DNA of 64,000 nucleotides from Reclinomonas americana ATCC 50394 (GCA_048213135.1 PS015134.1:1-64000); one strand, 5' to 3'. Counted from the stretch's first letter, positions 4,235-53,600 are shown. Made by a program: numbers and translations. Notes: generated by a model not told the origin, from the sequence alone.

Positions 4235-5482
4235 CTACCTCTTCATCGACCCCTCCGACGGTTCCATGAAGCGCGACTGCAAGTACGCGCAGATCAAGCG
4301 CATTGAGCCGATTCGCGGCAAGGATCGCGACTTCAACCTCGACCATCGCTCCGTCGACAAGCACGTGATTAGCGATTTTCGACCGTACGTCCTCTGTCGC
4401 TGCTACCTGGTGACCAATTACGGGCAGCCGCAGCCATTCAATGTGTCAAAACTCAATAAGAATGGAACAGTTGCGTGGCGTGTTTTGGAGAGGGAGTGAA
4501 GTAGTGGGAGCCTGAAAACCTCACCCGTCCTGTTGCGTGCAGCAAACCGAGGTCATTCTGCGTGTGTATCCGGGCCACCTGGAAGAGGTGGAGAGCATGA
4601 CGCAGCGGCGCGTGCGCTGTGACGAGCTGATGGCGCTTCGCGGCTACGCGGTGTGCTCCGACAACCCGCAGCTGCTGATGATTGCCATGCCAGGTGGCCG
4701 CTATCGGCTGTACAGCTGCCCGGATCGTGATGGACTGGCGCGGTGAGTTTGGAGTTCTTTTTGATGAACACTGCGGCACACGATTACGGACACCAGAGTG
4801 GGAACAGACAGACGTAGTGTGTGGTGTTATTCTGCGTTCGTGTGCTTGTGTTCTCAGTGTCCTTCCTCTGCACGCGCTCTTGTGTCGTAATCTTGCACCG
4901 ATCTTTCTTCCTCTGACTCTCTTGCCTTGCTCTCTCTCTCTCCATCTCTCTCCCTCTCTTTCTATCCCTTCTCTCTCTCCCANNNNNNNNNNNNNNNNNN
5001 NNNNNNNNNNNNNNNNNNNNNNNNNNNNNNNNNNNNNNNNNNNNNNNNNNNNNNNNNNNNNNNNNNNNNNNNNNNNNNNNNNNNNNNNNNNNNNNNNNNN
5101 NNNNNNNNNNNNNNNNNNNNNNNNNNNNNNNNNNNNNNNNNNNNNNNNNNNNNNNNNNNNNNNNNNNNNNNNNNNNNNNNNNNNNNNNNNNNNNNNNNNN
5201 NNNNNNNNNNNNNNNNNNNNNNNNNNNNNNNNNNNNNNNNNNNNNNNNNNNNNNNNNNNNNNNNNNNNNNNNNNNNNNNNNNNNNNNNNNNNNNNNNNNN
5301 NNNNNNNNNNNNNNNNNNNNNNNNNNNNNNNNNNNNNNNNNNNNNNNNNNNNNNNNNNNNNNNNNNNNNNNNNNNNNNNNNNNNNNNNNNNNNNNNNNNN
5401 NNNNNNNNNNNNNNNNNNNNNNNNNNNNNNNNNNNNNNNNNNNNNNNNNCGCAATCTTGCCACTGCCTATTGTTCCCTCTTA

Positions 5483-5515
<33 letters not shown>

Positions 5516-7524
5516 TGTTTTCCCCTTCCCCTTCCTCCCCCCTCCCCCTTCTCCTCCCCCCTCCCCCTCCCCCTTCCCGCCTCACCCTCCCCACCTCCTC
5601 CCTCCCCCTTCCCCCCTCCCCCCTTTCCCTTTTCCCCCTTCCCACCTTCCCCCTCCCAGGTTCTTGGCCGACACCTACGTCAACCGCCTCGGCACCAAAG
5701 TCCGCGATCTCCCCCCGGAGCCCGCACAGCAACTCCTGGCCAAATGCAGCAAGCAACGCACTGTGGACTTGCGTCCAATCCACCGCTGGCACGCCGTGAA
5801 GCTGTGCGCGCCGCGGAATCCGCGTGAGTCGCCGAACGCAGGTCCCGCTGGTGCCCCCAAGCCGCGACCCCTCTCCACCCTGGCCACTGGCCTGTGCGAG
5901 TCCGACGGACAGACCGACGTCGCGCTCTCGGTGCACTCGTACGACGACATCTACTGCATTGTGCGACCGCCAACCGACCCCACGGTGCTGATTATCCAGT
6001 ACACCAACGACTACACGCACCGCTACGCGTGCGAGCAGCGTGAGGAGGTGGTGTCGTCGCTCATTGCCATGTGCGATCGGTCGGGGAGGCGCAGCTGGGT
6101 GCGCGCGTCGATGGTGCCCGCGGGTGCCGCTCTGCTGCCACTCCAACTGACGTCGCACGAGCTGCTGTCGGATCTGGAAGAGTATCTGGTGAAGCAACTG
6201 ACGTTATCGTCGACCAAGGGACCGCAGGAGTGGAGGTGGGTGTTGGGAGGTTGGTGGGAGAGGAAAGCGCGTGGTATGCTCATCGACACCGTGTGTACAC
6301 ACAGACGTGCGGCTGACGAATTCAACGCGTCGTGCAACGTCGGTGCGTGTGTCACCAAGGACAAGAAGGCCTTCATGTTGGTGCTGGATTTGCTGTCGCG
6401 AGCCATGAGCGACAAGGACCCCGAGGTGCTCACCGCGCTTCTCAATTGTGTGGAGAGGTTCCTGGGTTCCAAGGGTGAGTGCTGAGGGCAGAGTATAGAG
6501 GGAGGGAGGGGAGGTCATTGAGAAAAGACAGGATAGGGTGAAGTTTAATGACGGCAACGCGTTTCGTAGGCGATAATGAGAAGTCACTCGTTTTCATTGT
6601 TTTTCTCGAACCGCGCCCTCTTCATTGTTATCTATTCTCAATTCCTCTCCTCCACAGCTTGCTTCACCGCTGTTCCACAACTGCAATCGGCATTCTCGGT
6701 TGTCTACCAATTGGTCACCACCTCGATGGACCAGGAAGTCGTGTATGCGGCCACGCGAGTGCTTCGCCAGGCTGCCGAGCAGGCGTTTGAGACGGACAAG
6801 ACTCGCTACGAGCAGGCCAACAAGCAGGTAAATAGACGTGTGTCAGTTTTCCTGGCACGCCAACCGCGTGGCACTCAATCAGCGCGACGCAGGCTATTTT
6901 CGACGAGAGCTCAGTCAACACGCTCATCGACCAGGCCTTCCGTCGGCTTGAGAATCAGCAGGTTCTGAGCGCCACCGGCATTTTCCAGCTGCTGTCGTCG
7001 CTGCTGCACTGGAACTACGGCTCGACGCCGAACAATGTGCTGCAGTCGGCTCTGCGTGCGCTGCAAACACGATGGGTTGCGTCTTTACTGGAGCTGGCAC
7101 TTGTTCCTTGTATTTCCTCTCACTGTTTTTTTGGTGCTCCGCGCAGTTGCAACTTGTGGAGCTGTCGCTCTCACCTGCTCTGGGCATTGCCGAGAACGCC
7201 GCGTGCCTGGTGAAGGTGCGCAGCGAGAGTTGTAGGTTTCGAAGTTGTTGATTCTTATCTATTGTGGCATGCAGTCGCTGTTGTCGCTGGTTCGTCGCGA
7301 CNNNNNNNNNNNNNNNNNNNNNNNNNNNNNNNNNNNNNNNNNNNNNNNNNNNNNNNNNNNNNNNNNNNNNNNNNNNNNNNNNNNNNNNNNNNNNNNNNNN
7401 NNNNNNNNNNNNNNNNNNNNNNNNNNNNNNNNNNNNNNNNNNNNNNNNNNNNNNNNNNNNNNNNNNNNNNNNNNNNNNNNNNNNNNNNNNNNNNNNNNNN
7501 NNNNNNNNNNNACGCAATTAGTCG

Positions 7525-7567
<43 letters not shown>

Positions 7568-10491
7568 TCTGTTTGTTTTCGTCTCTCTCACTCTCTCTGT
7601 CTCTGTTCTGTCTCTCTCTCTCTCTCTCTTTGTCTGTCTGTCTTGTCTCTCTCTCTCTCGCTCACTCACTCACACCACTCTCAAAACACACACGCTGCAT
7701 GTCGCTGAAGACTGCCTGCTTATTCTTGCACTTTTCCTTGGAGAGCGTCAGCGTCCAATCGTTCTTTTTCCTTGAAACGCCTCCCTCAGTGCTCTCGCTT
7801 GCGCTGTGCCTCTATTACCCTTCCCCCAGTTTCTCCTTCTCCTGCCTCCTCTGTTGGTCTACTCTTTGTATCTCATTATCCATTTCTGCACATCCTTCTT
7901 CTCTCCTCGTCCCTTGCATCATTCCTTCGTTTCCCCTTATCGTCGTCATCCAATCTTTCGTTCTCTTTCAACTCCCTGTTCACCCTTTCCCTTCAATCTT
8001 GTGTTCCCCACTTGTCATCTCCCCATATCCTTACCCTTATCATTTCCCCCCTCATCTCCCCTTCTCCTTCTCCTTTCCCTCCCTTTGTGTTCTCCTCATA
8101 TATCCGACTTCTCATCCTCTTCCCTTCCCCTTACGCTCCCCTCACCTCCGTCATTCCCTTTACCTTTGCCTGTCCTTCCCCTCCTTCCCGTCACTCCCCC
8201 TTCTCCCCCCTTCTCCCCCCTCACTCCCCCCTTCTCCCCCCTCCCTTCCCCTTCCGCTTCCCTTTCCCTCCCCTTTCCCTCCCCTTCCCCTCCCCTTCTC
8301 CTTCCCTTCTCCTTCCCATTCCCCTCACCTCTCCCTTTCCCTTGTCGCAGCGCCCCAAGCCTCTGGCGCAAACGTGGCCCGCGCATGGGCGACGCCGGTC
8401 CGCCACTCCCCCTCGAGCTCAAGTGGCAGAATATGTTCGAGCACGTGAGTGACGACCACCAGCGTGGCGAAGTGATTTGGAATGACCAGACGCGTGCCGA
8501 GTTCCGTCACGCGTTGCTCACCGAGTATGCCGCGTTCCGCGAAGACCTGGTTTGCGCTCCCCGCATGATGATTAGCTCCTGTACGTTGCTCCTCACTCCC
8601 CGCTCCCCGGCAGGCCAAATTCCCGGGCTCGGTGGTGGAGTGGAACTCGGACGAATTCACGGTGCGCTACGAGAGTCTGGATAACGAGCTGCGAGTCGGC
8701 GGTTTCTACCTCGGCAACTACCTGCGCGAGGTGGAACGCATGGGCTTTGGCAAGGAGAGCGAGGTCGACGATCCCATGGCCTTCCTGGACGACCTGCATC
8801 ACCGCCTGCTGTTTGACACTCGCCCGGAGACGCAAATGCTCTGCCTGAAGACCATGGTCATTGTGTACACGATGTACCGGCAGAAAGTCGGCGTGTACCC
8901 CTTTATCAATCACTTGTGTCAGGCACTGGTCAAGTTGCGTCACCACTGCCACACACACACACACACACATATCTTTGCTTGCTTTGTGTGCTGATGGGGG
9001 AAAGTACACTGTACAGCTGGGAGTACTTGCCGGCCAAGATCCAGCTGCTCACCTTCCTGCAGCAGTCGTTCTCCAGCGAGCAGAACGTGAAGCTGTTTGT
9101 CGACAATGGCGGTGTCGATTTTTGCATCTCGGTGCTGCCGCTGGTGCACTCGCTGCCGCCACCATCGCCCGACGGCGTGGTCTCTGAACGTTGCGACCTC
9201 GATCAATGCTCTCACAGTCTCTTTGGGTGGCTGCTCACCATTGTGTCGCGCGCGTGTGGTTGTTTGTCGCAGACACGGAGTTGGTGATTCTGGTGTTGCG
9301 TTTGCTCATTCGCGCCGCCTCGTTCCACCCGAGCCTCGACGAGGACGGCAATGTGCTGGTGCCGCTGCCCCGTGTCAAGCGACTCCTCAGCTCGGAACGC
9401 CTGCTGCCACACATTGCGCAGTTGCTATTCACCACCAACGACACGGTGCTGTCGCTGGTATCGCAGCTGCTGGAGACACTGATTGAGCACAATCACGAGA
9501 TTGGTGCGAGTGAGAGTCACGCGCGCTGTGTCTGATCTCTCTCTCACCCGCTGACGCATCTCTGTCTCTTTCACGTGACAGGGCATCGTCTGTACCGCAC
9601 TGGCATCTTCTTCTTCCCGTTCCTGCACGACGGCAAGCGATTCGCTGCCGTCGCACCGATCCTCTACGCAGCCCACATGGTGCAGAAGCGTGTGCCGCCG
9701 GTGGCCCTGGAAGAGATCATGCCGTACAATCTGGTGCGCTTGCTGGAGGAGAGTGGAGCGGCTACATTTGTGGCCAGTTTCCAGTCCGACATGGAGAGTC
9801 CGTCGCTCATCTGGAACCAGGTGAGAGCGCGGGCGCTTGTTGTTTCATGCTGAGAAAACAGCATGATCTGACATTGTCTCTCTTTCCTCTCTCACGTCGC
9901 AGACCATGCGACAGTCGTTGGTGGCGCACATGCGCGCGCACTTGGCGCCCTTTTATCACCAGCTGTCGGCGGCTCCGGGCACCAGCGTCTACAGCCTGTC
10001 GACCAGCTTCACGCGCATGGAATACGGCCATCTCACGCAGGAGCCGCGCTGCGGCAAGTACTTTTTGCGGTATCTGTTGGACCAGAGCCGCTGGCCCGCC
10101 GGCTTCCAGATCGCTCCCGTGTCCGAATTCCTGGCCGAGGCCACGGATCTGATGCAGCAGCTCATTGTGATTCACGCGCAAAGCAATGTCGATATTTTCA
10201 TGCTGATCGACGCCATTAACATTGTGTGGCCGCGGTATGCGGAGGATGCCGCCGTGCGCAACTTTGCGTACTTTGCGCCGTTGATTCCGTGCATGGCGGT
10301 GAGTGAAGGATAGAGGGAGGAAGAGGGAGAAGGGATTGGGGCCTCATCTTTCTCCTCTTCGATTTCCCCTTTTCTCTCCCGCTCTTCGCTGACACTTTCT
10401 CCTTGTTTGACTGTCTCGATTCCTCATCATTCTTCTCTCTCTGCTGTCTCTTCTTCTTCTTCCTCTTCTTCTTCCTCTTTTTGTTCGTCTC

Positions 10492-10523: not shown

Positions 10524-13500
10524 CTCCCACCCTCCTTCCCTCCCTTTTTCTCCCTCATTCCTTGCCCAACGCGCAGGTCGCTGTGCAAGAACAACAAATC
10601 ACCCTCCTGGAGCGCCTCCTTGCGCTCCTCATGACGGCCACGCGAGTCAATCCGCACGGCAACCTCAACGCGCTGGCGCAGACGTTCCAGAGCGTGGAGA
10701 CGCTGTGCCAGGTGGTCGATGCTCTGACACCGCTCCGCGACGTTTTCGTGCCGTCGCTCACCACTCTGATGAGGTTTGGACATCATGCTCTTCTCGTCGC
10801 GCAAGTATCTCATCCTTGCACTGCAGTCTGCTGGCCGAGATGACGGGCATCGACAGCGTCGCATCGGTTGTCTCCAACCAAATCACCGCACTCAAATCCA
10901 TGGTCGGCCTGACTGCGCTCACCGTCGGCAGTCCGAACACCATGGTTTGAATTCTTTTCCGCACTTTTCCCTTCCCTTTTCCCTCACCCTTCACCTCTGC
11001 GTACAGCTGCTGGAGGCCACGTTGAAGACACTCCTCAACTGCGCCGGCGTCAGCTCTGCTGTGGACTTGTACCTGACCAGTGGCATGCTGCCGGTGTTGA
11101 TCGTGCTCATTTCGTCGGCGCACGACGACGGCGAGAGCCGGCATGAAGCGCGCGCTCTGGCCACCCTCGGCGCCTCGCTGCTCTCGCGCATGTACCGCAC
11201 CTCGAACAATGGCGGTGTGGCGCAGGTCATTTCACGCCTGCTGCCGGCGCATGTCATCGACCGTCTGCGCTCTGGCGTGCAAGGCTCGGAGGTCGTCGCT
11301 GCCTTCCAGGCGGAGACCGAGTCGGCAAATGCCGTGTGGAATGCCAACACGCGCGCCGAGCTCACCTCGGCCATGCGTCACCAGGTGAGAGGGAGGGATG
11401 GAGGGGGATATAAGGAGGATGTGATTTGGGGTGCTGATTCTTGTTTCGTTTTGGTACAGGTTGCCGACATTCAGCAAGGCTTCATGAGCGGCCGGCAAGA
11501 CTTTGATCCGCAGCCACTGGCGCAGTTCGAGTTCGATTCCTTCAAGGTTCATTTTATTGTTGCTGCATTTGTTTCATGTCCGCAACATAGCATGTGTTCA
11601 CCTCTCGCGTCGCAGTCGGAGCTCAAGGTCGCCGGCGTCTTTGTGCGCCAATTCAACAAGGATCCGCGCACTGGCATTGAGCGTCCGGCCGAGTTCTTCA
11701 AGGGCCTTCTCTACGAACTGAGTGTGCAGGACGAGCCGGGGTATGTCGCGCCGTGTTTGCGCGTGGCGTGTAGCATGGGTTGCTGATCATGTCGACATGG
11801 GATTGCAGATGCTCGTTGCTGATTCTGGAGGCCCTCAACAACGTGCTGGTGGCCAATCGAAGTCTGGCGGCACAATTGTATGGCGAAGTGTCGGCGCTGC
11901 ATGCAGTGCTCGGGTCGGCGTTCCGTCACACCGACTGCGCCATTCGTGCGCTGTTTATTTTCTTTGCCACGGCCCGCGATCGGCAGTACACCGAGGCTCT
12001 GGTGCAGGTCTGTCATGCGTGGGAGAGTGGGTATGTTGCGCGATGATGCTGACGATCGCACTTGTTGGCAGGCCGGCGCTGTGCGCGAGTTGCAAAAGTT
12101 GCTAAAGATGTATGAGAATTCGTCCATCATTCAGCAGCTTGCCAATGGTGAGTGGAAGGGGAAAGCAAAGGGAAAGGGGGGAAGGGGAGTGGAGAAGGGA
12201 CTGGGGAGAAGCGTGCTTTGTTCGGTGGATTGTCTGTGCGTGGGAGGAAAACTGGGAGAAGGTAGAATGGACTGTGAATTAGCATGTCATCTGTTGTGCG
12301 TTCCTTAGATTGCTCTGTGTATTCATATGCGTGCGTGCTGCGTGTGCTCGAGTATGTGAGTGAGTGGAAGGGACTGATCGCCCTGTTTATCTTACCGTGG
12401 TTCTGCGCCTTCGCTCTTAATTTCTTTCTCTCTCTGTGTGTGCGCCAGAGCAGAATCTGCACGAGATCGAGGGCATGTATGGTCAGAACAGGTTGAGATT
12501 GCATAATTCGGTGTGTTGAGGCATGTTGAGCACACGGTTAGTTTTTCTGTGAGAGGGTTCGCTGTGTGTGTGGGAGAGGACCGCATCTCGATTTTAGTCG
12601 CCATTTTACTCACGGAAGATGGCCACAGGCGTCCTGTTCTTTGTCATTGCCGAGTGTCCGTCCGGCGCTGCACAGTTTGTGGCTCTCGGTGGCCACTTCC
12701 AGTCCCTGGTCTCGTTTGTCAACACGCAGGAGAGCGTTGCGTACGAGCGTGCGTGTCAGCTGCAACATTTTCCTTTGCTGATGTAGCTCCCTTTGTTGTG
12801 TTGCAGGAGACCGCGCGTCGCATCGCTGCCGTGCTGTTGTGTGCTACGTTGCAGAGCGAGTCAGGCCCACAAGTGCGTGCGGACATGCTGCGGTACCTGC
12901 CGCCGATTTTCGTTCGCAAGGTGTTTGAGGAGCCGACGGCTGCGGTGGCGTTTTACGACACGGTGCGTCGCTGNNNNNNNNNNNNNNNNNNNNNNNNNNN
13001 NNNNNNNNNNNNNNNNNNNNNNNNNNNNNNNNNNNNNNNNNNNNNNNNNNNNNNNNNNNNNNNNNNNNNNNNNNNNNNNNNNNNNNNNNNNNNNNNNNNN
13101 NNNNNNNNNNNNNNNNNNNNNNNNNNNNNNNNNNNNNNNNNNNNNNNNNNNNNNNNNNNNNNNNNNNNNNNNNNNNNNNNNNNNNNNNNNNNNNNNNNNN
13201 NNNNNNNNNNNNNNNNNNNNNNNNNNNNNNNNNNNNNNNNNNNNNNNNNNNNNNNNNNNNNNNNNNNNNNNNNNNNNNNNNNNNNNNNNNNNNNNNNNNN
13301 NNNNNATGAGGGGGGAAGGGAGAGAGTAATGAGAAGGGGAAATGATGAGACGAAAGAGAGAGAGCATGATAGAGAAGAGAGAGATTGAGAGAGAAAGAAC
13401 ATGAGGTGAGTGCAAGCATGAGAGATAAATGGAAAATGTGTGTATGTCTGTGTTGACACGTGCTTGAACGTCTTGTGTGATGTGTGTGAAGTGTGTTCTT

Positions 13501-16034: not shown

Positions 16035-16534
16035 ATGCCACGAGCGTGGCTTCTCCTTCTCCTCCTCGCCTGCCTCTCTGCAGCACTGCTGCTCACCACA
16101 GCTGCACAGTTATTCAACAAGACGCACAGTCTCTCTCTCTCTCTCTCACTCACTCTCACTCTCTCTCACTCACAGAGAGGAAGATCCCGATGTGCTCTCT
16201 CTGGTGAACACTGCGATTGGCACAGGCGGTGATGGATATGGAGTGGGCGCGTTGCCTCCGGGAGCGCAAGTTGAGTGAGAGAGAGAGAGATTGAGTGTGT
16301 GAGAGTGTGTGTGTGTGTGTGAGAGAGAGAGGCAGACTTAGTGAGTGAGTGTGAGAAGTAAGCGATGCATTGTGAGACCAATAGTAATGCACACACACAC
16401 ACATAGAGAGAAAGAGAGAGGGAGAGAGTGTGTGTGAGTGAGGGAGGGTGGAAGACTGTGAGAGAAGGCGAGAGAGTGCGAGAAGCCGACAATGCATGGT
16501 GAGACCCATAGAGATGCACACACACACACACACT

Positions 16535-16572: not shown

Positions 16573-19500
16573 ATGAGAGAGGGAGAAATGCATCAACAAA
16601 GAGCAATCGGAGAAAAGCATTCTCTTGAACTTCTCTCACCCTTTCCTCTCTGTCTCTCTCTCTCTCTTCTCTCTCTCTCTTCAGGTTCCCTTTGGCTTCG
16701 CGCGCATCAGTCCCGACACCTCTCTCGATGTGATTCGCGTTCCGTGGCGACATCCCGGCGGCTACGCCTACTCGGACACCTATGTGCGCGGTTTCTCGCA
16801 CATTCACATGGTGGGCGCGGGAGTGCTGGATCTTGGTGAGTTGGAGGGGGAAAGGAGAGAGAGGGGAGGGGGAAAGAGAAGGGAGAGAGAAGGGACAGAG
16901 AGAGAGAGAGAGAGGAGGAGAGAGAGAGGAGAAGGAGAGAGAGAGGAGAGGAGGAGAGAGAGAGNNNNNNNNNNNNNNNNNNNNGTCATGCGACTCGCTA
17001 TCCTCTCCTCTCTCTCTCTCTCTCTCTCTCGCTTGAGAATTATGCTTCGGACCGCTTCTCAGGTCTCTGCTGCTCTCCCCCTTTGCCTTTCCCATTTCCT
17101 CCATCACCCACTCATCCCATGCACAGGCAACCTCGGCGTGATGCCCACATCCGACATCAGGTCTACACACACGCCATTTCCCTTCCCTTACTGCACACCC
17201 TCCCCTCACACCCTCCTCCTCCTCGCAGCAACAACCGCGTCTCCTGCTTCAACCCCATCCCGCTGAAAAAGGACCGCCTGCGCGTCTGCAACTTCCGCGC
17301 CAAGTTCTCCCACGAAGACGAGATCATGTCGCCGGGCTACTATGTTGCGTCGTCTCCCTCCCTCCCGCTGCCGTTTCGTCACTCCCGCTCATTTCATAAC
17401 TCACCACAGGCGGTGACACTGACCCCATCTCCGTCGCTGAACATCCGTGCCGAGTTCAGCTCCACGGTTCACGCCGCTGTGCATCGCTACACGTGGCCGG
17501 CGGAGGGCGGCCGCTTCGTCGTGTTTGATCTCGGCCACTCGGTCTCCATCAGCCCGAATGCCGTCAGTAACTCCACTGTCGTTGCGTAGCGCAGGGAGAG
17601 AGAGAGAACACAAGTATCAGGACGCCTCCCTTCTTCATCTGTTCAACTCTCAATTGCTTTTGCTTCTCAGGCTCACCCTCACTCACCTTCTCTCCCTTTC
17701 CTTTCCTGCTTCGTTTTGTCCATCTTCTCAGGCATCACCGTCTTCATCTCTCTGCTTCTTTTATTCACCCTCCTCTCTCTCTCTCCCTTCTGTTCCTCCA
17801 TCGTGTTCTCTGTTCGATCCGCTATTCCCTCAATCACATCACGCGGCACTCTTTCTCGCATTCCAATCGCCTTCTTTGCGTGCCTCTGCATCCTCGATGA
17901 AGCCTTCCATCAGAACTCATATTTCAACCACATTGTCACCCCCTCCCTTTCCCTCCCCCTCCCCCTTCCCCTTTCATAGGTTCTCGACCGCTCCGACCAA
18001 GAACTCTACGGCTCCATCAAAGCCGACGGCGACTACTCCAACCGCTTCGGCGGCTACACCCTCTACTTCACCGTGCGCTTTAGCCAGCCCTTTGACACCT
18101 CCGCCTCGGGCCTCTGCACGACGGGCGAGAGCGGCCAGCTGTTGCCCATGCTGTCCACACTGACGGGCCCACTCACTGGCGCCTACCTCAAATTCGCCAG
18201 CTCGGTGTCGTCGGTGGAGGTCTACGTCGGCCTCTCGCTCATCTCCGTCGACCAGGCGCGCACCAACCTGCAAGCCGAAGTCAGCAGCGCCAAGTTCGAC
18301 GACATCAAACAGCGCGCGCAGCAGCTGTGGCGCAACAACCTCTCCCTGTTCAAGGTGAATCTCGACACCAAGGACGACTACGAGAAGAGTTGCGTGTGGC
18401 GGGGGAAGGGATGGAAATGGAGAGAAGTTGGTTCTGATGTGAGTGTGTGTGTGTTGCGCAGCGAATCTGGTCAAGTTCTACACGGCTGGTGTGTGGTTTT
18501 CGTGACTGCGCTCATTTGCATCAGTTGTTTATCGTTCCTCTGCAGTGTATCACGCGTACTGCGCGCCGACGCAGCTGAACGAAGTTGGCGGGTGCGTCGA
18601 TTGTGTTTCTGTGCTTCGTGCTGCTGTTCGTCTTTCTCTTTCATCGATATTCTGTGCATTCAATCGTCGTCATGCTTCTGTGCCTTTCTTCATGATTTTG
18701 CTTCTAGCACCTCCGCAACTTGCCTCTTCCTCGCTTCGTCGTCTCTGCTCTTTTGCTCCTTTCCTTTCCCGTCTCATAACCGGTGATGATGGCTGACACA
18801 TCTTTCCTCTCTTGTCTCTCACTCTCCCTCCCTCCCTTTCCCGCTTCACAGCGTCTACGTCGGCTTCGACAAGCAGCTCCACAAACTCCCGGCCGACATG
18901 CAGAACTTTGTGCGTGTTTTGTCTCCCCCCATTTTTCTCTTTCTTCGCCCAACTTGCTGACCAGTTATTCTCCCCGCAGTACACGGATGTTGCGTGCTTC
19001 TCCAACCATCTTCCTTGCTCCTTTGCGTGCTCACTCCTTCCCCTTCACCGCCGCAGCTGTCGATCTGGGACATTTACGTTGCGTCTCTCACGATCCTTTC
19101 TCAACACTCCTCACCCGCTAACTTTCTCTTCGCACAGCGCTCCGAGTGGCCGCTCCTGGCTCTGACACAGCCGCAAGTCGCGCTCGACACGATGAAATCC
19201 ATGATGCTGGTCTTTGAGCAGATTGGTCACCTGCCCAAGTGGGCTCTCCTCTTTGTTGCGTCTCTCTCTCTCTCCCTCTCCCCTGCCCTCTCGATATCCG
19301 ATCGCTGACCGTCTCATTATCCCGCATTCAGGGCGACACGGGTGGCATGACGTTGCGTTGATTCTCGGCCCTTCCCTCTCTCTTCCTCTCGATGCTAACC
19401 TCCCCTTCCCACGCGCAGCGGCATGCACGCCGCATCAATGATCAGCTTCTCGCATGCCATTGGCCTCGGACTGAACAGCTTCAATTACACGGACGCACTC

Positions 19501-36261: not shown

Positions 36262-37556
36262 TCATTCACGATTGGTATTCAGTCGACGAGTGAGTAACGC
36301 AATGATCGCTGCACGCGAAAAAGACCCTGTGTGAGTCACGAAAGACGGAAGAAGAAGAAGAGGAATCGCCGCGGCGTACCTTTGGCCGATCGCTCATCAA
36401 TGGCCTCCAGCAGATGTGCCACCTCGCTGCTGCTGATGCTGCCGCCACCTCCTCCGCCGCCGCCGACTCCTCCTCCGCTGCCGCCTCCACCGCCGCCAGT
36501 GGGACTGGAGAGTGTGTTGCCTGGAGTCAGTGATGAACCGGTGATGGTGCCAGGGAGCCCGGCTGTCGACGGGTCGAGAAGAGCGCCGGCAGAGCTAAGT
36601 GAGCCGACACCAGCAGCGGGAGCTTGCGACTGACTGGCGCCGTCGAGCACGAGGGCGCGCTGCTGGGGGAAGAACGACACGTCTTGCTTGGCCACCTGCG
36701 TCGAGAATTTGGTGAGAATGAAACCGTGGACACAACATTGAAGGAGAACAGCTTGCGAACCAACTCGGCCACATACTGCTCCGTGCCGGTGTAATCGGTG
36801 GGGTCCGTGTGTTGCAAGTACGTCTGGGTGGCAGCAGCAGCAAGAGGTGAGCGACAGAAGCATCAGAAACAAGTACTCTTGGTGCATGAACACAGACCAA
36901 GAAAAATACATATTGCCACATGTTGTGATCGTTGTGAATGTGATCCTCGAAACCTACCACAAGAAACCAGTCAGCGATGGCTGCAAACTCCTCCCACCCT
37001 TCCCCATCCCGCACGAACCGTTGCCAAGTCTCTCAAACACGGATCGAGGCAAGTTGCAAATGAAGCAGCGGGTATCGCGGTCCTCATTGACTGCGTCCTT
37101 TTGGGCACGCAGTTCACCAAACGTGTCGAGAATGATACCTGTGTTGCAACACAGTGAGTGCGCCGGAGTCAACATGTTATCTTACATCGCAAGCCACGCA
37201 CCGAAGATGAGATTCAACGTGACGATCGTAATGATGACTGCACACAGAGAACATTGCAGCGTGAGCTCCAGCAACGACTCGCCATCTAGCATTCTGGACA
37301 TGCGTACGTACAGACTGCGCAGTGCACACAAATATGGGATGAGTGTAACGCGACGCGGCAACAAATGAGCAGCAGAACGACGCACAGAAGAACAGACTGA
37401 AGATGCCAAATCCAACAATGTCGTCGGGTTTGAACAGTTGCTGTGGAACGACAATGCAGCGTGAGCTTGCGATTGGGAATTCAAGGTATATAGAGTTGTT
37501 TGCTCACCTCAAAAAACGACGCGCCACGCAAACTGCACGAAACAACACCGGTAAGG

Positions 37557-40500: not shown

Positions 40501-43500
40501 CGTGAGTCACCAGAGTAACAATCACGTGATCTTGCTCACACACGCAACTCTTCATCGCCATCGTCACCCGCCTCCATCTCCTGCTTGTGGAACTCCAGAC
40601 GTCGATGCAAGGCGCGCTGCTCCTTGATCTCAGCAGTGGCGCGACGAATGCGGTCGCGAACGGAGGTGAAGAACTTTTCGTCGGCAGAGCTCACAAGGTG
40701 CTTGTAGATGGCCTCTTGCACATGGCGGTTGCCTCCGTCCAGCAGCGCAATGCCAAAATCAAGAGCCGCCTTGACAATCGCATCCATGGGCGAAGTGATG
40801 AGCTGTAGGACGAGTACTGCCGCACCAAAGTCACACAGCTTGTTCTGGATTGTGGTTTGCGGAACCGGCACCTCATTGGCCGTTGTGTCCGCCGACCACT
40901 CCAACAAGTGTGTGAGGATGCGCAGGCAGGTGACAAACAAGTCGGTCTCCTGTGCGTGCACGCGTTGATCCGAGCTGCGCACATTTGTTAGCGACAGAAA
41001 ATTTGAGATCTTCCCCCGCACACAAACTGACCTCAACAAGAAAATCAGCTTCTTCGCCTCCAACAAAAAGTCCGGCGACGACGGCTGCACCACTTGTCCG
41101 TGCGAGTCTGTCACAAACACCATGGCCAGGTCGTGGAATTCAGCAGTGGGGTCGCAGCTGGGCAAAGGAACAACACAAGTGAGCCTCCAAGGCATACGAA
41201 CAAGAAAGCTGCGTATCGACGCACCCCTTGGCGATAATCTCAGACAACTGGGTGAACCGGCGCTCCTCGCCCACGTCGGTCAGGTGCACTTGAGTCGTCG
41301 ACGATGCGTCGCTTTGCGATCGCATACCCTCGCCGATTTCAAACGCCTGTCGAATGAGAAACTGTCAAAACGGCGTGCGCTTGCGTGCATGGAGAGATGA
41401 GAGACGCGATCGCAACTCGCTCATTGTGACGCGACGGTGGAAGCGCAGTGCTCGACATGATGGCAGCCATGGCGCTGCTCAGCTCGCGCTGCTCTCGATG
41501 ACCGGTGACGTACGAGTCCAGTGCCACCAGCGCATCGATGAGGCTGAGAGCCACTCGCGGACCGCGTCTGCACGCACCAGTCGTGAACACACATGTGGAA
41601 GACAGGCACTCACGCGCAGCACCCCACGCAACGGATCCGATTTCCAGTCCATTCTGTCGTCCGTGCACAGGGAGGCAACCAACGGCAACATGCGCTTGAA
41701 CAGGTACTTGCGGTAGTGACCCAGAACTCGCTCACGCTCCGTCGCGTCGGTTGGCACCAGAGAGGGATCTGAGTGGCAAAAACTTTAACATGTGCGCTGG
41801 ACAGCCGCGATGGAAGAAAGTCGCTCACCAAAGGGAGGTGCGTCACGCAAGGCAGCCTCGGCGTCGGCGTTACGCGGCTGCAGCGCCATGAAGAATTGCA
41901 CATCGCGGATCAACGACTCGAGCAGCTGGCCCACAGGTCCAGCGCAAGAGAGCAACGCCGATCGTTGCTCGACATTGACGTACACCTCAAAAATGAAGAA
42001 CACCAGTGCACTCTTGACCTCGATAATGCACCCAGGCTCCACTGCCATGTCGATGGCCACATCGAGTGGCAGCAAGCTCTGGCACTTGACTTCGACCTGT
42101 CGCCAGCGGAAATCTGCTCAGAAAGGAAGCACAATCACTCTTACTGGCGACGCGAAAGCACTCACCAAATGTAGCCTGCCCAGCGAGCACATGGCAAGCG
42201 TCTCGAGCAATGAAATGTGGTACGCCAGTGGACTCTCCTCCGCGTGTGTGATGTGATTGCGCGCCGCCATGAGCTGCAACCTGCACGCCCCCATCATGTT
42301 AGCTGACAGGATAGGGAGAGAGACACGCCCCAGTCAGAAAACACACCGTCGTGCGCGCTCTTCCGGCGTGTTGAAGAGGATCATGGTCTCGTGCTCTCGC
42401 TCAGTCAGCATCTTGATAACCAGCTGCTGGTTGCGTCGAATGGGCCGCCCGTCGACCACCAGGATCACGTGGAAAAAGTTGGTGTAGCGCTGGTATCGAC
42501 CGCGTTCGACAATCAGCGTGATAAAATGCCGAATGTACTTTTCCTTGATGCTGCTGCACAGTACGCGATTGTTGCGGTAGATTTCCTCAATGTGTTCGGC
42601 GGCCTTGAGCTTGACACTGTTCAGCGGCAGTGAGCGCGCACAGAAAGCAGGAAAAGAGAAAGGCGAGGCCAATGTCACAAACCCCATTTGTGACAGGTAC
42701 AGTTCCATCTTGATCGCACATCGGCGCTGGTTTGCACGGTTCTTCCGCACAAACTGCGATGGAAGAAGACGCGAGGTGAGTATGAACTCACGGTCCATGT
42801 CTCTCATATTCACGACGCAACGTGCTTCAGCGCCTGGTAAATCGCCAAGAACAGTCCGCGACGCGACAGCTCCGTCGGCAAGTTGGCAAATGGCAGCTCC
42901 AACAACTCGTGCAGAATGTCGTCAAAGCCGAGGTTGCGCAGAATATTCTGCTTCTCTCGTGCTCCACGCTTCTGCTGCAGCTCTGCGCACGACGCGAACT
43001 AAGTATTTCACACACCGGGCACACACTGCAGCGAAAAACTGACTGAGAAAACAAACCCGCAATGACGGCGTTGCAGAGATTCATCATCTCCACTTCATCG
43101 GCGCTGACGACCTGTGAGCCCTTGGACTGGAGGTTGGAGAGGCGATTCACCATCTCGCGCAGGCGACGATACACGGCCACACTCTCGTCTGTCACCAACA
43201 GCAGCGACGAACGGACTTGCGTGGTGAGCTCGGCGTTCGAGCTGCCAGTGAGCCACATGGTTGTCAGCAATGTTTTCACAGCATGCGTGCTGTCGAGTTG
43301 CGCACCTGAACATGCGAAACAAGAGCTTGAAGCATGCCGTGCGCAGTTTCGGGTACTGGTAATTGCACAGGTACAACAGAATGCTGCGCAGCGAGTCCAT
43401 GTTCCCCAACATGTTGCAGTCCTGCATCGGCGGCGATGAGTGAAAACTACCACCACAATCCTCGGCATGTCGACGCACCTCAAAGAAGCGGTTCATGACA

Positions 43501-46500
43501 TCGCGCGTGACGGCCATGTCGGGTGAGCGTCGAAAAGCGACCAGGAACAGTGCCAGACGCTGGTCAAGGCGAATGTCGAGGAAAAAATTGAGCAAACTCA
43601 CGCATTCGATCTTGCACTTGACAATGACCGAGTTGATCTCGCTGGGGTCGAAGCGGCTGTGCGATGATCCACCAGCTTCGGCAGAACGCTGGGTGCCACG
43701 ACCTGGTCGACAACACGAATGTGAGAGGCGAAGGAAAATAACGTCATCAGCACCCCACAGACCTCCTGCGACCAGCTCGTCGGTACGCCCGTCGAGCAAC
43801 GCAATCACGTCGGCGGCGACCTTGGAAATGTTCATCAGCTGCCGCAGCTGACCCCAGTCGGCCAGCATTACGAGAACGCGAAGAACCTGCGGAGTGTGTC
43901 GGTGAGCGAGTGGAGCGCGACCGAGTGTCTCTCCCACCCTCCTCCGTCGCTCACGCAACACTGAGAATTAGTTGATTGTGCGACGCGCGGCCATAAAACT
44001 GTTGCCGATTCGAGCCGACAAACTCGCACGCAAACGCAAGCACAGCCCGAACACGCTCGTCAATGTCGGCCAGTGACGGCACATTGTCCAGTGCCGGCTC
44101 GTAGGCATTCAGGTCGGCCTCACTCGCAGCCTCAATCAGCGGCGACATCTCGCCGTGGAAGAACGAACGCCGGCTGTGCCGCTTGCTGTGTCGCTTGGAG
44201 GTGTGCGCATGGGGGGCAGCGGCGGTCGCCGAAGATGATTCCACGGGGTGCGGGTGAGACAGCGGCATGATATCCACTGTCGTGCCCGACGATGAGGCCG
44301 ATCCAATCGTGCGCACACCATCGTTGACTTGATCGCCTTGTGCGCTCCAGATCTGCAAGGCGGCGAGGGCGAATTCAGTTACTGTGTAGGAGAGAAGTGG
44401 GCAGTGCAGGGGAGAGACAGACCTGAATGTTGTGAATGCGTGGCGCGACGAAAAACGGATCCACGTCCACAAAGAGGTGCTGAATGAGCTGCACGTAGGC
44501 ACTGCGGAGCTTGGCCGGATATTCTGACGAGCGGGCAATCTCCAATGCCATCTCAAAGGGCACCAGTCCACTGATTATCCGGTGGGCGGCAGGGTTGCGT
44601 TGCTGAGGTGGAAGACGTGCGTGAGAGAGAGAGACAATTCGCAAGAGAGCAGCGCCACTCACCATGCACAGGGCGGCAAACAACTCAATCTGCGCCACGA
44701 GATAGTTGAATACCTCGGACGTCTTGTCGCGGCAAAAATTGACCAATTCGGAGTGGCAGCGAGTGCCGTCGTCCTCCATCCATTGAATGAGCGGGTTGGT
44801 CACCGGCGGCTGTGGAAAGCGCGCAGTGAGACTGGTGCGAATGAACACAGCACAACAGCATCAGCAGCGTCGGCGACGCAGACGCAACCGTCACGTGGTA
44901 CAACAAGTGCGGGCACGCCTGCACAAAGTTCTCCAGCACGTATTGCTGATTCGTGGGCACCACCAGCTTGCCGCACTTGACCAGCATGATGAGGAACTCA
45001 ATGTACCTGCCCAGTGGCAAAGGGAGAAGAAAGGGGAAGGGGGAAGAGGGAAAGAGGAGAAGAGGGGGAAGCGCAGATGAGCAAGACAACAGAGCGAGAG
45101 CTGCTTCTCGAAAAACTCACCGACTTGAACGACCCTTACGCGGCAAGTCCACGTAGAAGCGGAGTGTCTCGGATGACATGGAGTCGAGGAGTGCCCGGTT
45201 GTCACGAAACATCTCAATGAGCAGCTGTGACGTCATGAGGTGGTAGCCGTGCTGACTTTGGATGAATGGGATGTGTGGCACCACCGCTGCGCGGCCACGG
45301 TTCGACTCGCGGACAACGTGGTACAACAGGCGGTAGCTGAGGCGCACGACCTGAGCAATGTGCTGGTATTGTGACAGCAGCATGTCATCCAGGGTGTAGC
45401 CGCGGTCAAAGGGGGTGTGAATCGCCCTCATGCAGCGGTCAACCACCTGGAGAAGAAGAGAGGGAGGGAGGGAAATGATTAGCGAGAGAGATATTGCAGA
45501 GCAACGGAGGAGGAAACTCTTGCCACTAATGCGCAACTCGTCGGTCACGTAGGAGCCGCTGGTTACGCTTGATGGGGACACCCTCGCGCTCCATCGGATC
45601 TTGCACGTGCGACTCGGAGCACATGAAGATCAGGCGAGTGAGAGCCTCCAGCACGAACTGCAGCGACAGTGGACTGCACTCGTGCTGCTGGCGATGCGGG
45701 AACTGCATGGTGGCGGTTTCGCGGTGAGGGTGGCGGCTTTCGCTCGTTTCCACTGAACAGAACACACCTGACGAACAAAGTTGTCGAGCTCGGCGAGCAG
45801 CGACGTGGCCTGGTGCAGAGACGACACATCGAGGGTGGACGCCAGCACGACGTAGAATGCGTCTTCGTCGGGTCGCACAGTGGTCAGGGAGAGCAAGTGC
45901 GGCTTCTTCTCGGTTGTATCGTAGCCGATGAGTTGGGAGAATCGCGCCGCTCGAGTGGCCTCGTCGCTGCGTCGTTTGAGAAGGGGCGGGTGAGGTGAGT
46001 ATCGTGAGGGGGAGGAGGACGCACAATGAAACTCAACTCTGCCTCCTGCTCTTGCGCCTGCGAGCAGAGGAAGAAAGTCGATCGCTTGTGTCGCAAGCGC
46101 AGGTACGACTCGACGGGAATGAAGCCCTCGCTCTGCAAATATTGAATCAATAATACGGGAGCAACCATGGAATGACGCCTCGAGATGTCACCGACCTGGA
46201 AGAGCGGAAGGAAAACAAATAGAGTGTCGGGATCGTTGCGGTTGGCCGTCATGGTGACAATCGGACGCGCTGCTGCCAGGCGATGCAGCGGATTTTGACC
46301 TGAAAAATCACACAGCGAGTGAGTGACTGAGGACTGCTCTCTCATCAGCTTACATGTTGACTTCTTCACGACTCAACTGACAGTGGTGCGACGACCGAGT
46401 CGACTGAGCACTGCGCAGGCATCGTAAACACGTACACGGTGAGTCTTGCGCGATCGGAAAGAAGAGAACGTCATCGACATGTGCACGAACATCGCTCACT

Positions 46501-50617: not shown

Positions 50618-50667
50618 CACACCTGTCAATGCCGTCCATCAGCTTAGCCGTTGTGTGAACGCGCAGG

Positions 50668-53600
50668 ATGGAGCTCACTCGGTGCGCGTCTCTCGCCCTC
50701 TCTCTCTCTCTCTCTGGTGTTTGTTGTTGACTCACTCTTGTTTGTTTGTGTGTCTGTCAGACTCGACTTTGCGGGGTTCGGTGAGAACGATCCGCCTTCG
50801 CTGATTGGGCACTCGGCAAATGTGATCGAACACAGCTTGTTTACCTATGGTGGTGCGTGAGAGGAGGAGGAGAAGGGGGAGGGGGAGGGGGCAAAGGAGA
50901 GGGAGGGAGGGAGGGAGGGAGGAAGGGAAAGAAGAAAGAAAAGAAGAGAAAGTGATGAGAACGAGCCAAGCAGAAGAGGAGGGAGAGAGAAAGCAGAGAA
51001 CAGGGGTAGGCTGGGACGGAAGAGACCGAGAGAGTGAGAGAAAGAGACAAGAATAAGGAGCTGGAGAGAGAGGAGAGAAGGGGTGGGAGAGAGAAACTGC
51101 AAAGAGATTGAGATTGAGAAGGATGCTTGCAGGCAGACCGACTGACACACTGAGAGAGAACAGCGAGATGGAGAGACTGCGAGTGACCGCAGAGTCTCAT
51201 GCAACCTGACTGTCGCGCAGGCACAGAGAAAGAATGAATGAAAGAACGAAAGAGAGAGAGAAGGAAAGAAAGAAAGAAGGAGAGAGCGAGTGTCAGGCGG
51301 ACAGACTGACACACACAGGGAACCGAGAGTGAGAGAGAGTGGGAGAGAGAGAGAGAGGCAGGCAGGCAAACAGAACGCAGGAGAGAGAAAGAGAACGAGA
51401 GACCAAGCCAAGATTGAGAAAGAAAGACCTCATTCTCCTCCTCCCCCCGCCCCGTCCCCCCTTTGCTTCTCCCCTCCTCCTCACTTGCTATCCTCACATC
51501 AGGATGGACCTCTGGTCTCGGCTGCAACGCCGACCTCCGCGTGCTGGATCTCGACACCCGCTCGTGGCACGTATTACAGATCGAGGGCCCACACGTTCCA
51601 CGACCCAGCTACCGTCACGGATCGTTGAGTGCACTGACACGCACACACACGAGGAGGCTCATTCACGTACTCACTTTGTCTATCCGCGCACAGCACGACG
51701 ATTCTCTCCAAAATGTACCTGCTTGGCGGGTGCGAACCGCGCTCGAATGGAACACTGCGTCGACACGGCACGCTGTACGAGGTCGATCTGAACACGCTGT
51801 CGTCGGTGGCCATTGCCAGTTCGCGCTCCAGTGCCGATGCACCACCGCCGTGCAGCAGTCTCACGCTGGAGCACTGTGGCAAGCTGCTGGTGCAGTTTGG
51901 CGGCTGGGACGGCAACACCAACAACAGCAACATTCACATTCTCGATGCGCGAGTCGGCACGTGGTCGCGACCGCCAGTGCGTGGCCGGCCACCACTGCCG
52001 CGCTGTCGGCACGCCTCGGCGTCGCTGCCGGATCAGATGCAGCTGTTTGTGTCGGGTGGCATGGCGCTGGGTGGTCGCACACTGGACGACTTTTACATGT
52101 TTGACATGCGCAATCAGTCGTGGCTGACGCTGCCGTCGCTGCGCACGGGCGGCCACTTGTCGCGCTGCTCGCACACGCTGACGCCCTACCAGGGAGACTT
52201 TGTGTGCGCCGGTGGCTATCACCACTCGGAGAAGGCCGAGGGCATTCTCGGCGACCTCATCTTCTTCGACACCAAGAAGAGCGAGTGGTATGAGCCGCAC
52301 TTTTCGGAGACCTGCGAGCCGTTCCAGCCGCGGGAGAGTCACACGTGTTCGTCAGGTGAGACAAAAATGAGGGGAAAGTGAGGGAAAGGAGTGGATTGTG
52401 TGCGTGGGTTTGGCTCACGCATCACGGCTTTCTTTGTTGATTTTTGCCTTGTTGTGTCGCTCTCTTTCTCTCTCTCTCTCTTTCTCGCACTGCTTGTGTG
52501 CTTGTCCGAGTTGCATCCTTTGCAACATGATTTCTGCCATTTGCAGTCTATTCACCTCCAAATCAGATCTACCCACCTTGGATAGCACCTCGTGCATCAC
52601 CGTGGCATCTGTCTCTTTCTCTCTCTCTCTCGCACTGCTTGTGTGCGTGTCCGAGTTGCATCCTTTGCAACATGATTTCTGCCATTTGCAGTCTGTTCAC
52701 CTCCGAATCAGATCTACCCACCTGGGATAGCACCTCGTGCATCACCGTGGCATCTGTTTGTCTTCTCTGTTTGCGTGTGCGTGTGTTCGGACTTGTCTGT
52801 TGTCTGTTTCCTCTTCTGTTACGCCTCTGACTGTCTCTTGTCACTCTCACTGTCGGGTTGCTTTTTTGGGTGCCTTCTTTCTGTTGTTTTTGAGTCCCCT
52901 TCGCCCCCTATCCCCTTCCTCCCCCCTTCCCCCTCACAGGCTACGGCGGTCGCAAGCTGCTCTACTTTGGAGGCATGTCAACAGCGGCGCACTTTCAGGA
53001 CATGTTCCGCCAGGTCGACTGCATCGAGGCGCCAGACAAGTGGATTCACATTTGTCGGCGTATGAATGGTGCGACAATGACACACACCCGAATCCTTCTC
53101 TTTCCCCGTGTTTCTTCTCACTGTTGTCGATCGCAGCCTCCGTGTCACGTGTGGAGCGACAAATGAACCTCACCAGCCTGATGCAACACATGGGACGCGA
53201 CGTGTCGGAGCTGGAGCGCCTCGATGCCGAGCAGTTTGAGAAGACGGCACTCCTCGCGGCCTCTCACAGCGGCACGGTCAGCCCGAATAGCACAGCCTCT
53301 GCGTCGACGGCGCCAAGCTCCGCCGCAGCCGCGCTGGCCGCCCATCCACCGTCACTCTTCCGTCAGCGTGTGCAATCCAAGCAGCGCATCGCCTTTCTGA
53401 GCCGCACCGAGCGTTTCTGGAACACCTCTGTGGAGAAGATGCAGGAGGCCGTGACACGCCTGGTGAATCCGCTGGCCTCCAATCCGCTGCGCAGATTAGG
53501 CCGTCCTTATTCAGGTGAGCGAGATGGACAGTTTCTGCTTCTTCCGCGCATCAGTCCTCACTGCCCTTCATAGATGGCGCGCTGAAAACGCTGATTTGCG

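Follow-up and report, generated by a model that had tools for sequence, protein, structure and literature searches.

The window considered here is a stretch of 64,000 nucleotides from Reclinomonas americana ATCC 50394 (GCA_048213135.1, PS015134.1:1-64000). It is intron-dense eukaryotic DNA with a G+C content of about 55% and 15 assembly gaps, and our subject is the way in which its introns begin: at many of the predicted 5′ splice sites (donors) the intron opens with GTTGCG or, less often, with GTTGAG. Pfam matches on open frames place in it, on the plus strand, genes for RME-8 (about 3.8-12.5 kb), a GH92 glycoside hydrolase (16.0-20.95 kb), a WD40 protein (49.5 kb) and a Kelch protein (51.4-52.4 kb) and, on the minus strand, genes for an LsmAD protein (about 24 kb) and an IP3 receptor (IP3R; about 36-48.7 kb). 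This one 64-kb window, with some 8-9 predicted gene models, is the sample for all donor statistics given below. An earlier note on this DNA had named 15 such sites and had described them as the usual donor with one extra T at position +3 of the intron.

Introns were predicted with three gene models of increasing knowledge of splice signals, all of which yield GT-AG introns by construction. The neutral model is a self-trained Viterbi gene finder with a three-periodic coding model and a flat intron penalty that demands only GT and AG; the acceptor-only model is a Viterbi finder that includes a learned acceptor model while constraining the donor to GT alone; and the donor-aware model adds to the latter a learned first-order donor model. 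Unless stated otherwise, base counts by donor type are taken from the acceptor-only introns and, because that set was made without a donor model, these figures cannot have been shaped by one. In addition, a protein-to-genome aligner that allows any GT or GC donor and is otherwise neutral was run on two genes, using for GH92 a profile built on six proteins of that family, of bacterial and archaeal origin and taken from plasmid records, and for IP3R 14 full-length homologues from a representative protein library, the best of which is 37% identical. With its intron penalty the aligner misses microexons and chooses arbitrary sites where homology is weak, and it was therefore counted only where it agreed with the gene finder. 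Profile hidden Markov models (HMMs) of the GH92 and IP3R homologues took no part in gene finding. Searches for homologous proteins with a GH92 open reading frame and with an RME-8 exon returned no match.

Use of GTTGCG-type sites as donors

The hexamer GTTGCG occurs 86 times on the two strands of the window, against 48.39 (standard deviation 6.68, largest 67) in 100 dinucleotide-preserving shuffles, none of which reaches 86; inside predicted gene spans it lies 51 times in the sense and 25 times in the antisense orientation. All 13 positions at which the earlier note had placed it (4470, 7076, 8934, 9190, 17344, 17581, 18389, 18989, 19078, 19255, 19352, 19918 and 34891) are found among the plus-strand matches, and GTTGAGT is present at 16270 and 51624. 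GTTGCG is the commonest donor hexamer in every gene model, beginning 12 of the 109 introns of the neutral model (followed by GTGAGT with 7), 27 of the 165 introns of the acceptor-only model (followed by GTGAGT with 12, GTGTGT with 8, GTTGAG with 7 and GTGCGT with 6) and 35 of the 171 introns of the donor-aware model, where GTTGAG begins 7. It coexists, as had been described, with GTGAGT, GTGCGT and GTACGT donors. Likewise, the ratio of donor use to sense occurrence in gene spans is higher for GTTGCG (27/51) than for any other of the 154 GT-hexamers with at least 8 such occurrences, the corresponding values being 7/15 for GTTGAG and 12/51 for GTGAGT. Extended by one base to GTTGCGT, the motif has 35 sense occurrences in gene spans, 30 of them intron starts, 3 exonic and 2 within introns; and the more general pattern GTTNNGT, which describes 119 of the 7786 GT sites in the window, describes 30 of the 165 acceptor-only donors.

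Predictions that are blind to the donor beyond its first two bases recover many of the same sites. Specifically, the acceptor-only model uses 13 of the 15 sites named earlier (not 4470 and 34891) and the donor-aware model 14 (not 34891), which bears out, on the level of gene models, the claim that such donors are frequent and consistent in phase. The aligner picks 16270, 17344, 19078, 19255 and 19352 in GH92 and, on the minus strand, 45537, 43959, 40379, 38921, 38705, 38224 and 38065 in IP3R. These two genes hold 71 acceptor-only introns, and the 28 that match the aligner at both ends comprise 9 with GTTGCG, 1 with GTTGAG, 14 with GTNNGT, 3 with GTNNG and a base other than T, and 1 other. The reading frame is preserved across the 22 modelled introns of GH92 and the 54 of IP3R. 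Furthermore, the score against the homologue HMMs goes up with the number of GTTGCG-type donors that a model uses, from 323.8 bits (GH92) and 1058.5 bits (IP3R) with the neutral model to 455.6 and 1413.4 bits with the acceptor-only model and 488.8 and 1503.5 bits with the donor-aware model. For GH92, the alignment of the donor-aware model spans profile positions 22-709 and is ungapped over exons of 9, 21 and 20 bases that precede GTTGCG donors.

It might still be argued that these sites are not donors at all, and that chance enrichment of a hexamer has combined with an artefact of gene modelling. Consistent with this, 11 of the 43 listed GTTGNG donors come from the donor-aware model alone, and the four RME-8 sites named earlier come from the gene finder without support from homology: across 19 RME-8 exons, Pfam shows continuity of a profile over intron 8550-8613 only and not over the four GTTGCG donors of that gene. 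Against it stand the recovery of the sites by two methods that see nothing of the donor beyond GT (GT or GC for the aligner), the preference of independent homologue profiles for models that use them, the twofold sense bias and the excess over all shuffles. We consider this explanation very improbable, and the gene models show the GTTGCG-type sites as predicted donors that are frequent and frame-consistent.

A separate class of offset donors

Sorted by their opening bases, the 165 acceptor-only donors fall into 44 with GTNNGT (the ordinary donors), 36 with GTTGNG, 26 with GTNNG and a base other than T, and 59 outside every class, some of these last surely belonging to wrongly predicted introns. 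Among the 36 GTTGNG donors, the base at +5 is mostly C (27, with 7 A and 2 T) and that at +7 mostly T (28). The two main groups differ sharply in the last base of the exon, which is G in 1 of the 36 GTTGNG donors and in 38 of the 44 GTNNGT donors (Fisher p 2.5e-15); in the doubly supported introns the figures are 0 of 10 and 13 of 14. The exon positions -2 and -3 are uninformative across the modelled introns, so that G at -1 alone carries information. With the slash marking the cut, the ordinary frame is G/GTNNGT and the offset frame /GTTNNGT: both have the seven-base frame, and the offset form differs in its T at the place of the second G and in a cut that falls one base earlier.

The idea of a usual donor with an additional T, shifted by one base, stands as far as spacing is concerned; when +3 is ignored, G at -1 accompanies 38 of the 44 donors with GT at +5/+6 and 4 of the 37 with GT at +6/+7 (Fisher p 2.5e-12). 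Within the window, the 64 donors with T at +3 are also enriched for the displaced core, positions +4 to +7 reading GCGT in 22 and GAGT in 5. However, the offset site is not simply an ordinary site with a T inserted. GC fills the two variable positions in 22 of 30 offset donors and in 6 of 44 ordinary donors, the GT and TT cores that are common among ordinary donors are almost without an offset counterpart, and the distributions of cores differ (chi-square p 8.9e-6). Nor does T at +3 by itself mark the offset class, because GTTTGT and GTTCGT donors exist that are in register with the ordinary ones and follow an exonic G.

A boundary that had merely slid by one base was considered and ruled out: a G follows the intron in only 8 of 30 offset cases, and the cut therefore cannot be moved by one base. 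At the GH92 junction 19078, the conserved residues across the junction also fit the cut at GT. Among ordinary donors, position +7 is G in 22 of 44.

The 3′ half of the offset introns resembles that of the ordinary introns in every respect compared. Median lengths are 69 and 66.5 bases, respectively (Mann-Whitney p 0.80), pyrimidine fractions 0.68 and 0.69, and CAG acceptors are found in 26 of 30 and 35 of 40; a branch motif resembling CTNAC is present in 29 of 30 offset introns, mostly as CTCAC and with a median distance of 20 bases to the 3′ splice site, and in ordinary introns it is again mostly CTCAC, at a median of 19 bases. Separate 3′ signals for the offset class are thus ruled out, and the common 3′ half argues for a single spliceosome and against a system of the minor-spliceosome kind. 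U12-type introns are the natural comparison, as they too combine a rigid 5′ motif with the lack of an exonic consensus and lie alongside ordinary introns, but the offset class differs from them in having the branch-like motif, pyrimidine tract and 3′ signals of the ordinary class. The U12-type 5′ consensus is unrelated to GTTGCGT, and U12-type introns have a rigid branch site of their own, near the 3′ end, and lack a pyrimidine tract.

A different origin for the pattern would be the spread of the motif by mobile or repeated intron copies (introner-like elements), in which case its frequency would reflect recent intron gain and not a splicing code. That a single hexamer starts a fifth of the introns would fit such a history, as would its recurrence near the 3′ end of introns 4470-4542 and 18389-18461 on the plus strand, where GTTGCG appears again at 4532-4537 and 18453-18458, 8-10 bases before the end; this second copy could be chance or a trace of intron origin. 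Yet an all-against-all blastn comparison of the 171 modelled introns gave 14 hits, and among these only one pair, 25978 and 26457, joins two offset introns; it yields two of the hits and is a local tandem duplication. Otherwise the interiors of the offset introns show no relationship, and in length and composition these introns match ordinary ones. Because the offset introns are so unalike, an introner-like origin is unlikely, and we give it hardly any credence.

The earlier note had also suspected a connection with microexons, which the models do not bear out: an upstream exon of 30 bases or fewer precedes 3 of 36 offset donors and 3 of 44 ordinary donors. As modelled, the offset donors are shown to be a separate class with its own spacing rule and with 3′ signals that it shares with ordinary introns.

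Predicted pairing with U1 and a proposed reading of the offset site

Which RNA would read the offset donors, and in what register, we infer as follows. It seems to us probable, although by no wide measure, that the introns concerned are genuine GT-AG introns handled by the major spliceosome, with a second, discrete 5′ splice site, H/GUUGCGU (H being any base but G, and GUUGAGU a minor form), for which the reading register is displaced by one base. As modelled, ordinary sites in this organism are G/GUNNGU, and in the offset site that spacing is carried one base further in; the first G of the intron takes the place of the last G of the exon, a U replaces the normal G at +1, and the GU of +5/+6 moves to +6/+7. 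The most economical account would be recognition through a shifted U1 register or, equivalent by the number of pairs, with a U bulged at +2/+3. The same bulge would probably arise later in the U6 helix, and cleavage would be fixed at the sole available GU. Since the class is more rigid than that of the ordinary donors and does not follow affinity to a standard U1, some lineage-specific tuning of recognition is likely to lie on top of the offset.

Both registers have precedents, the shifted and the +2/+3 bulge register of U1 being established for human sites in passages of PMC4856993 and PMC9311317; in the shifted register all pairs between 5′ splice site and U1 are moved by one position, and in the bulge register a base at +2/+3 is looped out. 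For the pairing we took the standard 5′ end of U1 as given by Tan et al. 2016 (PMC4856993), which may not be that of the host. With this sequence, ordinary donors form on average 7.91 pairs in the canonical register, whereas offset donors average 4.47 there, against 6.40 when shifted and 7.17 when the base at +3 is bulged out. Pairs exceed those of the canonical register in 26 of 30 offset donors when shifted and in all 30 when bulged, and so far the suggestion of bulged or shifted pairing that had been made from the sequence holds. The offset register would restore most of the complementarity, which explains the spacing rule.

Several observations weigh against this reading, or at least against its simplest form. 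First, duplexfold (ViennaRNA) gives with the standard U1 a median of -1.0 kcal/mol for offset donors, which is weaker than the -2.1 kcal/mol of random GT sites (p 2.6e-4) and far from the -6.8 kcal/mol of ordinary donors. With the same U1, which again may not be the host's, GUUGAGU is predicted to reach -4.8 kcal/mol in a shifted helix, and the dominant GUUGCGU to stay at about -1 kcal/mol and to settle in no register. Second, the offset cores are GC in 22 and GA in 5, even though it is A, and not C, that pairs with U1, while ordinary cores are GA in 12 and GC in 6 (Fisher p 0.0017). Third, a G at -1 would strengthen every register with the standard U1, in an idealised oligonucleotide from -1.4 to -5.9 kcal/mol, and its presence in 1 of 36 offset donors falls short of the G content of the coding sequence, 30% (binomial p 7e-5). 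Fourth, the mismatched GTTGCGT is found 22 times and the matched G/GTGCGT 6 times. These four points indicate that affinity to the standard U1 does not shape the class, and hence either that the U1/U6 side of this organism is tuned differently or that a further component reads the heptamer. Finally, the junctions are predicted ones, from gene models that we built ourselves.

A dedicated component could read the heptamer directly, be it a second U1-type small nuclear RNA (snRNA), a sole U1 with a re-tuned 5′ end or a sequence-specific protein belonging to U1's small nuclear ribonucleoprotein (snRNP), and the offset donors would then form a class of their own and not a set of weak sites in an odd register. 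Much of what was just described would be expected of such a reader: a near-invariant heptamer (C at +5 in 27 and T at +7 in 28 of 36) with high specificity for intron starts, predicted pairing with the standard U1 below that of random GT sites, a preference between A and C opposite to that of ordinary donors, and the lack of an exonic consensus together with avoidance of G at -1. However, no RNA or protein of this kind came to light, and the window contains no snRNA gene, with 0 Rfam matches at gathering scores and, at E values up to 1, no snRNA but only low-complexity look-alikes of microRNAs and small nucleolar RNAs at about 16.5-17.1 kb. Across eukaryotes the 5′ end of U1 is, as far as is known, conserved very broadly, which speaks against such a reader. 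The spacing of a G, five positions and GU is common to ordinary donors as well, so that one reader in two registers would be the simpler arrangement, and the 3′ signals of the two classes are identical. On balance a dedicated reader of some kind is an unlikely but serious alternative to the offset register, and the narrower proposition that the organism has a second reader of intron starts, a U1-type snRNA or a U1 snRNP component with a surface matching GUUGCGU, strikes us as somewhat more doubtful still.

Long CT- or GA-rich low-complexity tracts at 5450-5660, 7520-8340 and 16280-17100 fill the larger introns and adjoin assembly gaps; the spurious microRNA-like Rfam matches are due to such tracts.

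It is also worth asking whether the two donor types belong to two general classes of 5′ splice site, one defined on the exon side (G at -1, loop 1 of U5) and one on the intron side (the ACAGA box of U6). The offset donors would be of the intron-side class, defined after U1 has left, and the U1 register would be of minor importance. Passages of PMC11732430 report that an exonic AG and a strong intronic motif are anticorrelated across diverse species; the two donor classes in this window show a contrast of that kind in G at -1, and poor complementarity to U1 would be harmless under such a scheme. However, the ordinary class retains G at -1 (38 of 44) together with GT at +5/+6 and so is not defined on the exon side only, and the depletion of G at -1 in the offset class to below background goes beyond a simple trade-off. 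Moreover, going by the pairing scheme, the canonical U6 register would put C and G where G and U are expected, and the same one-base bulge would be needed in the U6 helix. In comparison with the classes of that study, as far as its passages describe them, two donor classes in one genome with exonic G set against a strong intronic motif are a shared feature, but the motif found here is one base longer, near-invariant and with C where A is expected, and the other class keeps its intronic GU. We regard this explanation as improbable, more so than a dedicated reader. The exon-side and intron-side anticorrelation may nonetheless contribute to the contrast in G at -1; it would leave the extra base and the rigidity of the motif unexplained.

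The offset register that we favor has its closest known counterparts in the human sites mentioned above. In the shifted-register sites of Roca and Krainer 2009, as related in passages of PMC4856993, the G at +1 likewise stands in for that at -1, the core lies one base further in and the cut is made at GU, and an example oligonucleotide in Table 2 of Tan et al. (PMC4856993) similarly has a base other than G at -1. However, the human sites are, in the same passages, rare and heterogeneous and form a stable helix (-6.5 kcal/mol in one example), whereas here a near-invariant heptamer is the commonest donor and its predicted energy with a standard U1 is about -1 kcal/mol. The sites with a bulge at +2/+3 (Roca et al. 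2012, as related in passages of PMC4856993 and PMC9311317) share the extra U after GU, and all 30 offset donors pair better in this manner than in the canonical register. Such bulged sites keep the pair between G at -1 and C9 of U1, so that G at -1 should help; in the offset donors it is almost absent (1 of 36). A tunicate study raises the shifted register, in the passages of PMC13326754, merely as a possibility for non-canonical sites. Among the top-ranked papers on the motif in connection with splicing, on shifted registers and on U1 across lineages, none describes such a donor class, and the genome paper of the host or its supplements may mention one. What would be new here is that 5′ splice sites of the noncanonical-register type appear as a major and discrete class; the kind itself has been described in humans, where such sites are rare.

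Noncanonical U1 registers are known as a means by which rare, odd human sites are rescued, and in this window the offset site is the commonest single donor sequence. If this were true genome-wide, the organism would provide a natural system in which to ask what fixes the point of cleavage when the registers of U1 and U6 move, and whether recognition of the 5′ splice site can be re-tuned in a lineage. If there were a second reader, about a fifth of major-type introns would be under a code distinct from that of U1 and GURAGU while sharing the branch-site and 3′ machinery, and this would amount to a third kind of 5′ splice-site recognition beside those of U1 and U11. There are also consequences for annotation, as these donors, and the microexons that they flank, will escape gene finders whose training assumes a purine at +3 and G at +5; the GH92 and IP3R profile scores rise by about half from the signal-blind model to those that have learned splice-site signals and take up more of the offset donors.

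Listed sites and other features of the window

The individual GTTGNG sites are collected in the table. By homology alone the donor at 17581 is ambiguous, because the alignment took a GT one codon upstream, at 17578.

Table. GTTGNG sites on the two strands of the window, with the gene models and alignments in which each is used as a donor (both ends: model and alignment agree on donor and acceptor)
Feature	Position	Strand	Support and remarks
GTTGCGT donor, RME-8	4470..4476	+	intron 4470-4542; donor-aware model only; next exon opens a weak RME-8_N match at residue 2
GTTGCGT donor, RME-8	7076..7082	+	intron 7076-7146; acceptor-only and donor-aware models
GTTGCGT donor, RME-8	8934..8940	+	intron 8934-9004; neutral, acceptor-only and donor-aware models
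GTTGCGA donor, RME-8	9190..9196	+	intron 9190-9272; neutral, acceptor-only and donor-aware models
GTTGCGT donor, RME-8 3′ part	12736..12742	+	intron 12736-12806; donor-aware model only
GTTGAGT donor, GH92	16270..16276	+	intron 16270-16684; acceptor-only model and homology alignment, both ends
GTTGCGT donor, GH92	17344..17350	+	intron 17344-17409; neutral and acceptor-only models and homology alignment, both ends
GTTGCGT donor, GH92	17581..17587	+	intron 17581-17979; neutral and acceptor-only models
GTTGCGT donor, GH92	18389..18395	+	intron 18389-18461; neutral and acceptor-only models; profile alignment crosses junction, three-residue insertion just after
GTTGCGT donor after 9-base microexon 18980-18988, GH92	18989..18995	+	acceptor-only model; profile alignment ungapped over microexon; intron-penalised homology alignment skipped microexon
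GTTGCGT donor after 21-base exon 19057-19077, GH92	19078..19084	+	acceptor-only model and homology alignment, both ends
GTTGCGT donor, GH92	19255..19261	+	intron 19255-19331; acceptor-only model and homology alignment, both ends
GTTGCGT donor after 20-base exon 19332-19351, GH92	19352..19358	+	acceptor-only model and homology alignment, both ends
GTTGCGT donor, GH92	19918..19924	+	intron 19918-19977; neutral and acceptor-only models; preceding exon aligns to GH92 profile with 5-residue insertion
GTTGCGT candidate donor	34891..34897	+	looks like 70-base intron 34891-34960, CAG acceptor 34958-34960; within no predicted gene
GTTGAGT donor, Kelch-repeat gene	51624..51630	+	intron 51624-51693; neutral and acceptor-only models; next exon bears Kelch Pfam matches
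GTTGCGT donor, gene at 52.7-55.7 kb	53927..53933	+	donor-aware model only
GTTGCGT donor, gene at 52.7-55.7 kb	55147..55153	+	acceptor-only and donor-aware models
GTTGCGT donor, gene at 52.7-55.7 kb	55412..55418	+	acceptor-only and donor-aware models
GTTGCGT donor, gene at 21-26 kb	22998..23004	-	donor-aware model only
GTTGCGT donor in duplicated unit	25972..25978	-	donor-aware model only; intron 93% identical over 118 bases to 26457 intron; gene model weak
GTTGCGT donor, second copy of duplicated unit	26451..26457	-	donor-aware model only
GTTGAGG donor, gene at 27-32 kb	27050..27056	-	neutral and acceptor-only models; poor acceptor context, low confidence
GTTGCGT donor, gene at 27-32 kb	30839..30845	-	donor-aware model only
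GTTGAGT donor, 3′ end of modelled IP3R transcript	35361..35367	-	acceptor-only and donor-aware models
GTTGTGT donor, IP3R	36730..36736	-	neutral and acceptor-only models; homology alignment favoured GT at 36760
GTTGCGA donor, IP3R	38059..38065	-	acceptor-only model; donor also in homology alignment
GTTGCGT donor, IP3R	38218..38224	-	intron 38224-38157; acceptor-only model and homology alignment, both ends
GTTGCGT donor, IP3R	38565..38571	-	acceptor-only and donor-aware models
GTTGCGT donor, IP3R	38699..38705	-	acceptor-only model; homology alignment has same donor, different acceptor
GTTGCGT donor, IP3R	38915..38921	-	intron 38921-38789; acceptor-only model and homology alignment, both ends
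GTTGCGT donor, IP3R	39526..39532	-	acceptor-only and donor-aware models
GTTGCGT donor, IP3R	39664..39670	-	neutral and acceptor-only models
GTTGCGT donor, IP3R	40373..40379	-	intron 40379-40313; neutral and acceptor-only models and homology alignment, both ends
GTTGCGA donor, IP3R	41410..41416	-	neutral and acceptor-only models
GTTGCGT donor, IP3R	41626..41632	-	acceptor-only and donor-aware models
GTTGCGT donor, IP3R	42815..42821	-	acceptor-only and donor-aware models
GTTGCGT donor, IP3R	43953..43959	-	intron 43959-43887; neutral and acceptor-only models and homology alignment, both ends
GTTGCGT donor, IP3R	44882..44888	-	donor-aware model only; one of two listed GTTGNG donors with G at -1
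GTTGCGC donor, IP3R	45531..45537	-	intron 45537-45447; neutral and acceptor-only models and homology alignment, both ends
GTTGAGT donor, IP3R	46031..46037	-	neutral and acceptor-only models
GTTGAGT donor, IP3R	46371..46377	-	acceptor-only and donor-aware models
GTTGCGC donor, gene at 58.6-63 kb	62768..62774	-	neutral and acceptor-only models; intron spans assembly gap
GTTGAGA donor, gene at 58.6-63 kb	62889..62895	-	donor-aware model only

One further IP3R junction, at 40486-40548 on the minus strand, deserves mention. The model has its GTGTGT donor at 40543, and 5 bases upstream of this, at 40548, stands a GTTGCGT; CAGAG is the sequence at the acceptor. Combined with the CAG acceptor, the 40548 site is in frame and gives 1504.3 bits against the IP3R profile, compared with 1503.5 for the modelled junction. 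The junction at 40543 could thus be mis-modelled, or that at 40548 could be an alternative one. Also on the minus strand, a duplicated unit of about 480 bases at 25840-26590 repeats tiny modelled exons and introns, with intron pairs that are 93% and 86-95% identical; GTTGCGT starts an intron in both copies, and the gene model there is doubtful.

The GH92 gene (15993-20955, plus strand) is interrupted by about 22 introns in this eukaryotic DNA, with exons of 9, 20 and 21 bases among them, and the closest homologues retrieved are bacterial and archaeal, with 26-34% identity over one exon. The WD40 protein (49538-50613, plus strand) is encoded by one long exon of 1076 bases amid this intron-dense region; its best relatives in a large protein collection share no more than 45% identity and belong mainly to metagenome or bacterial-type WD40 repeat proteins, with some from fungi. 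Lastly, a 145-base tandem repeat at 52463-52768 on the plus strand, with 2.1 copies and 93% matches, presents an acceptor-like end in each copy, and both of these ends are used by the gene finder.

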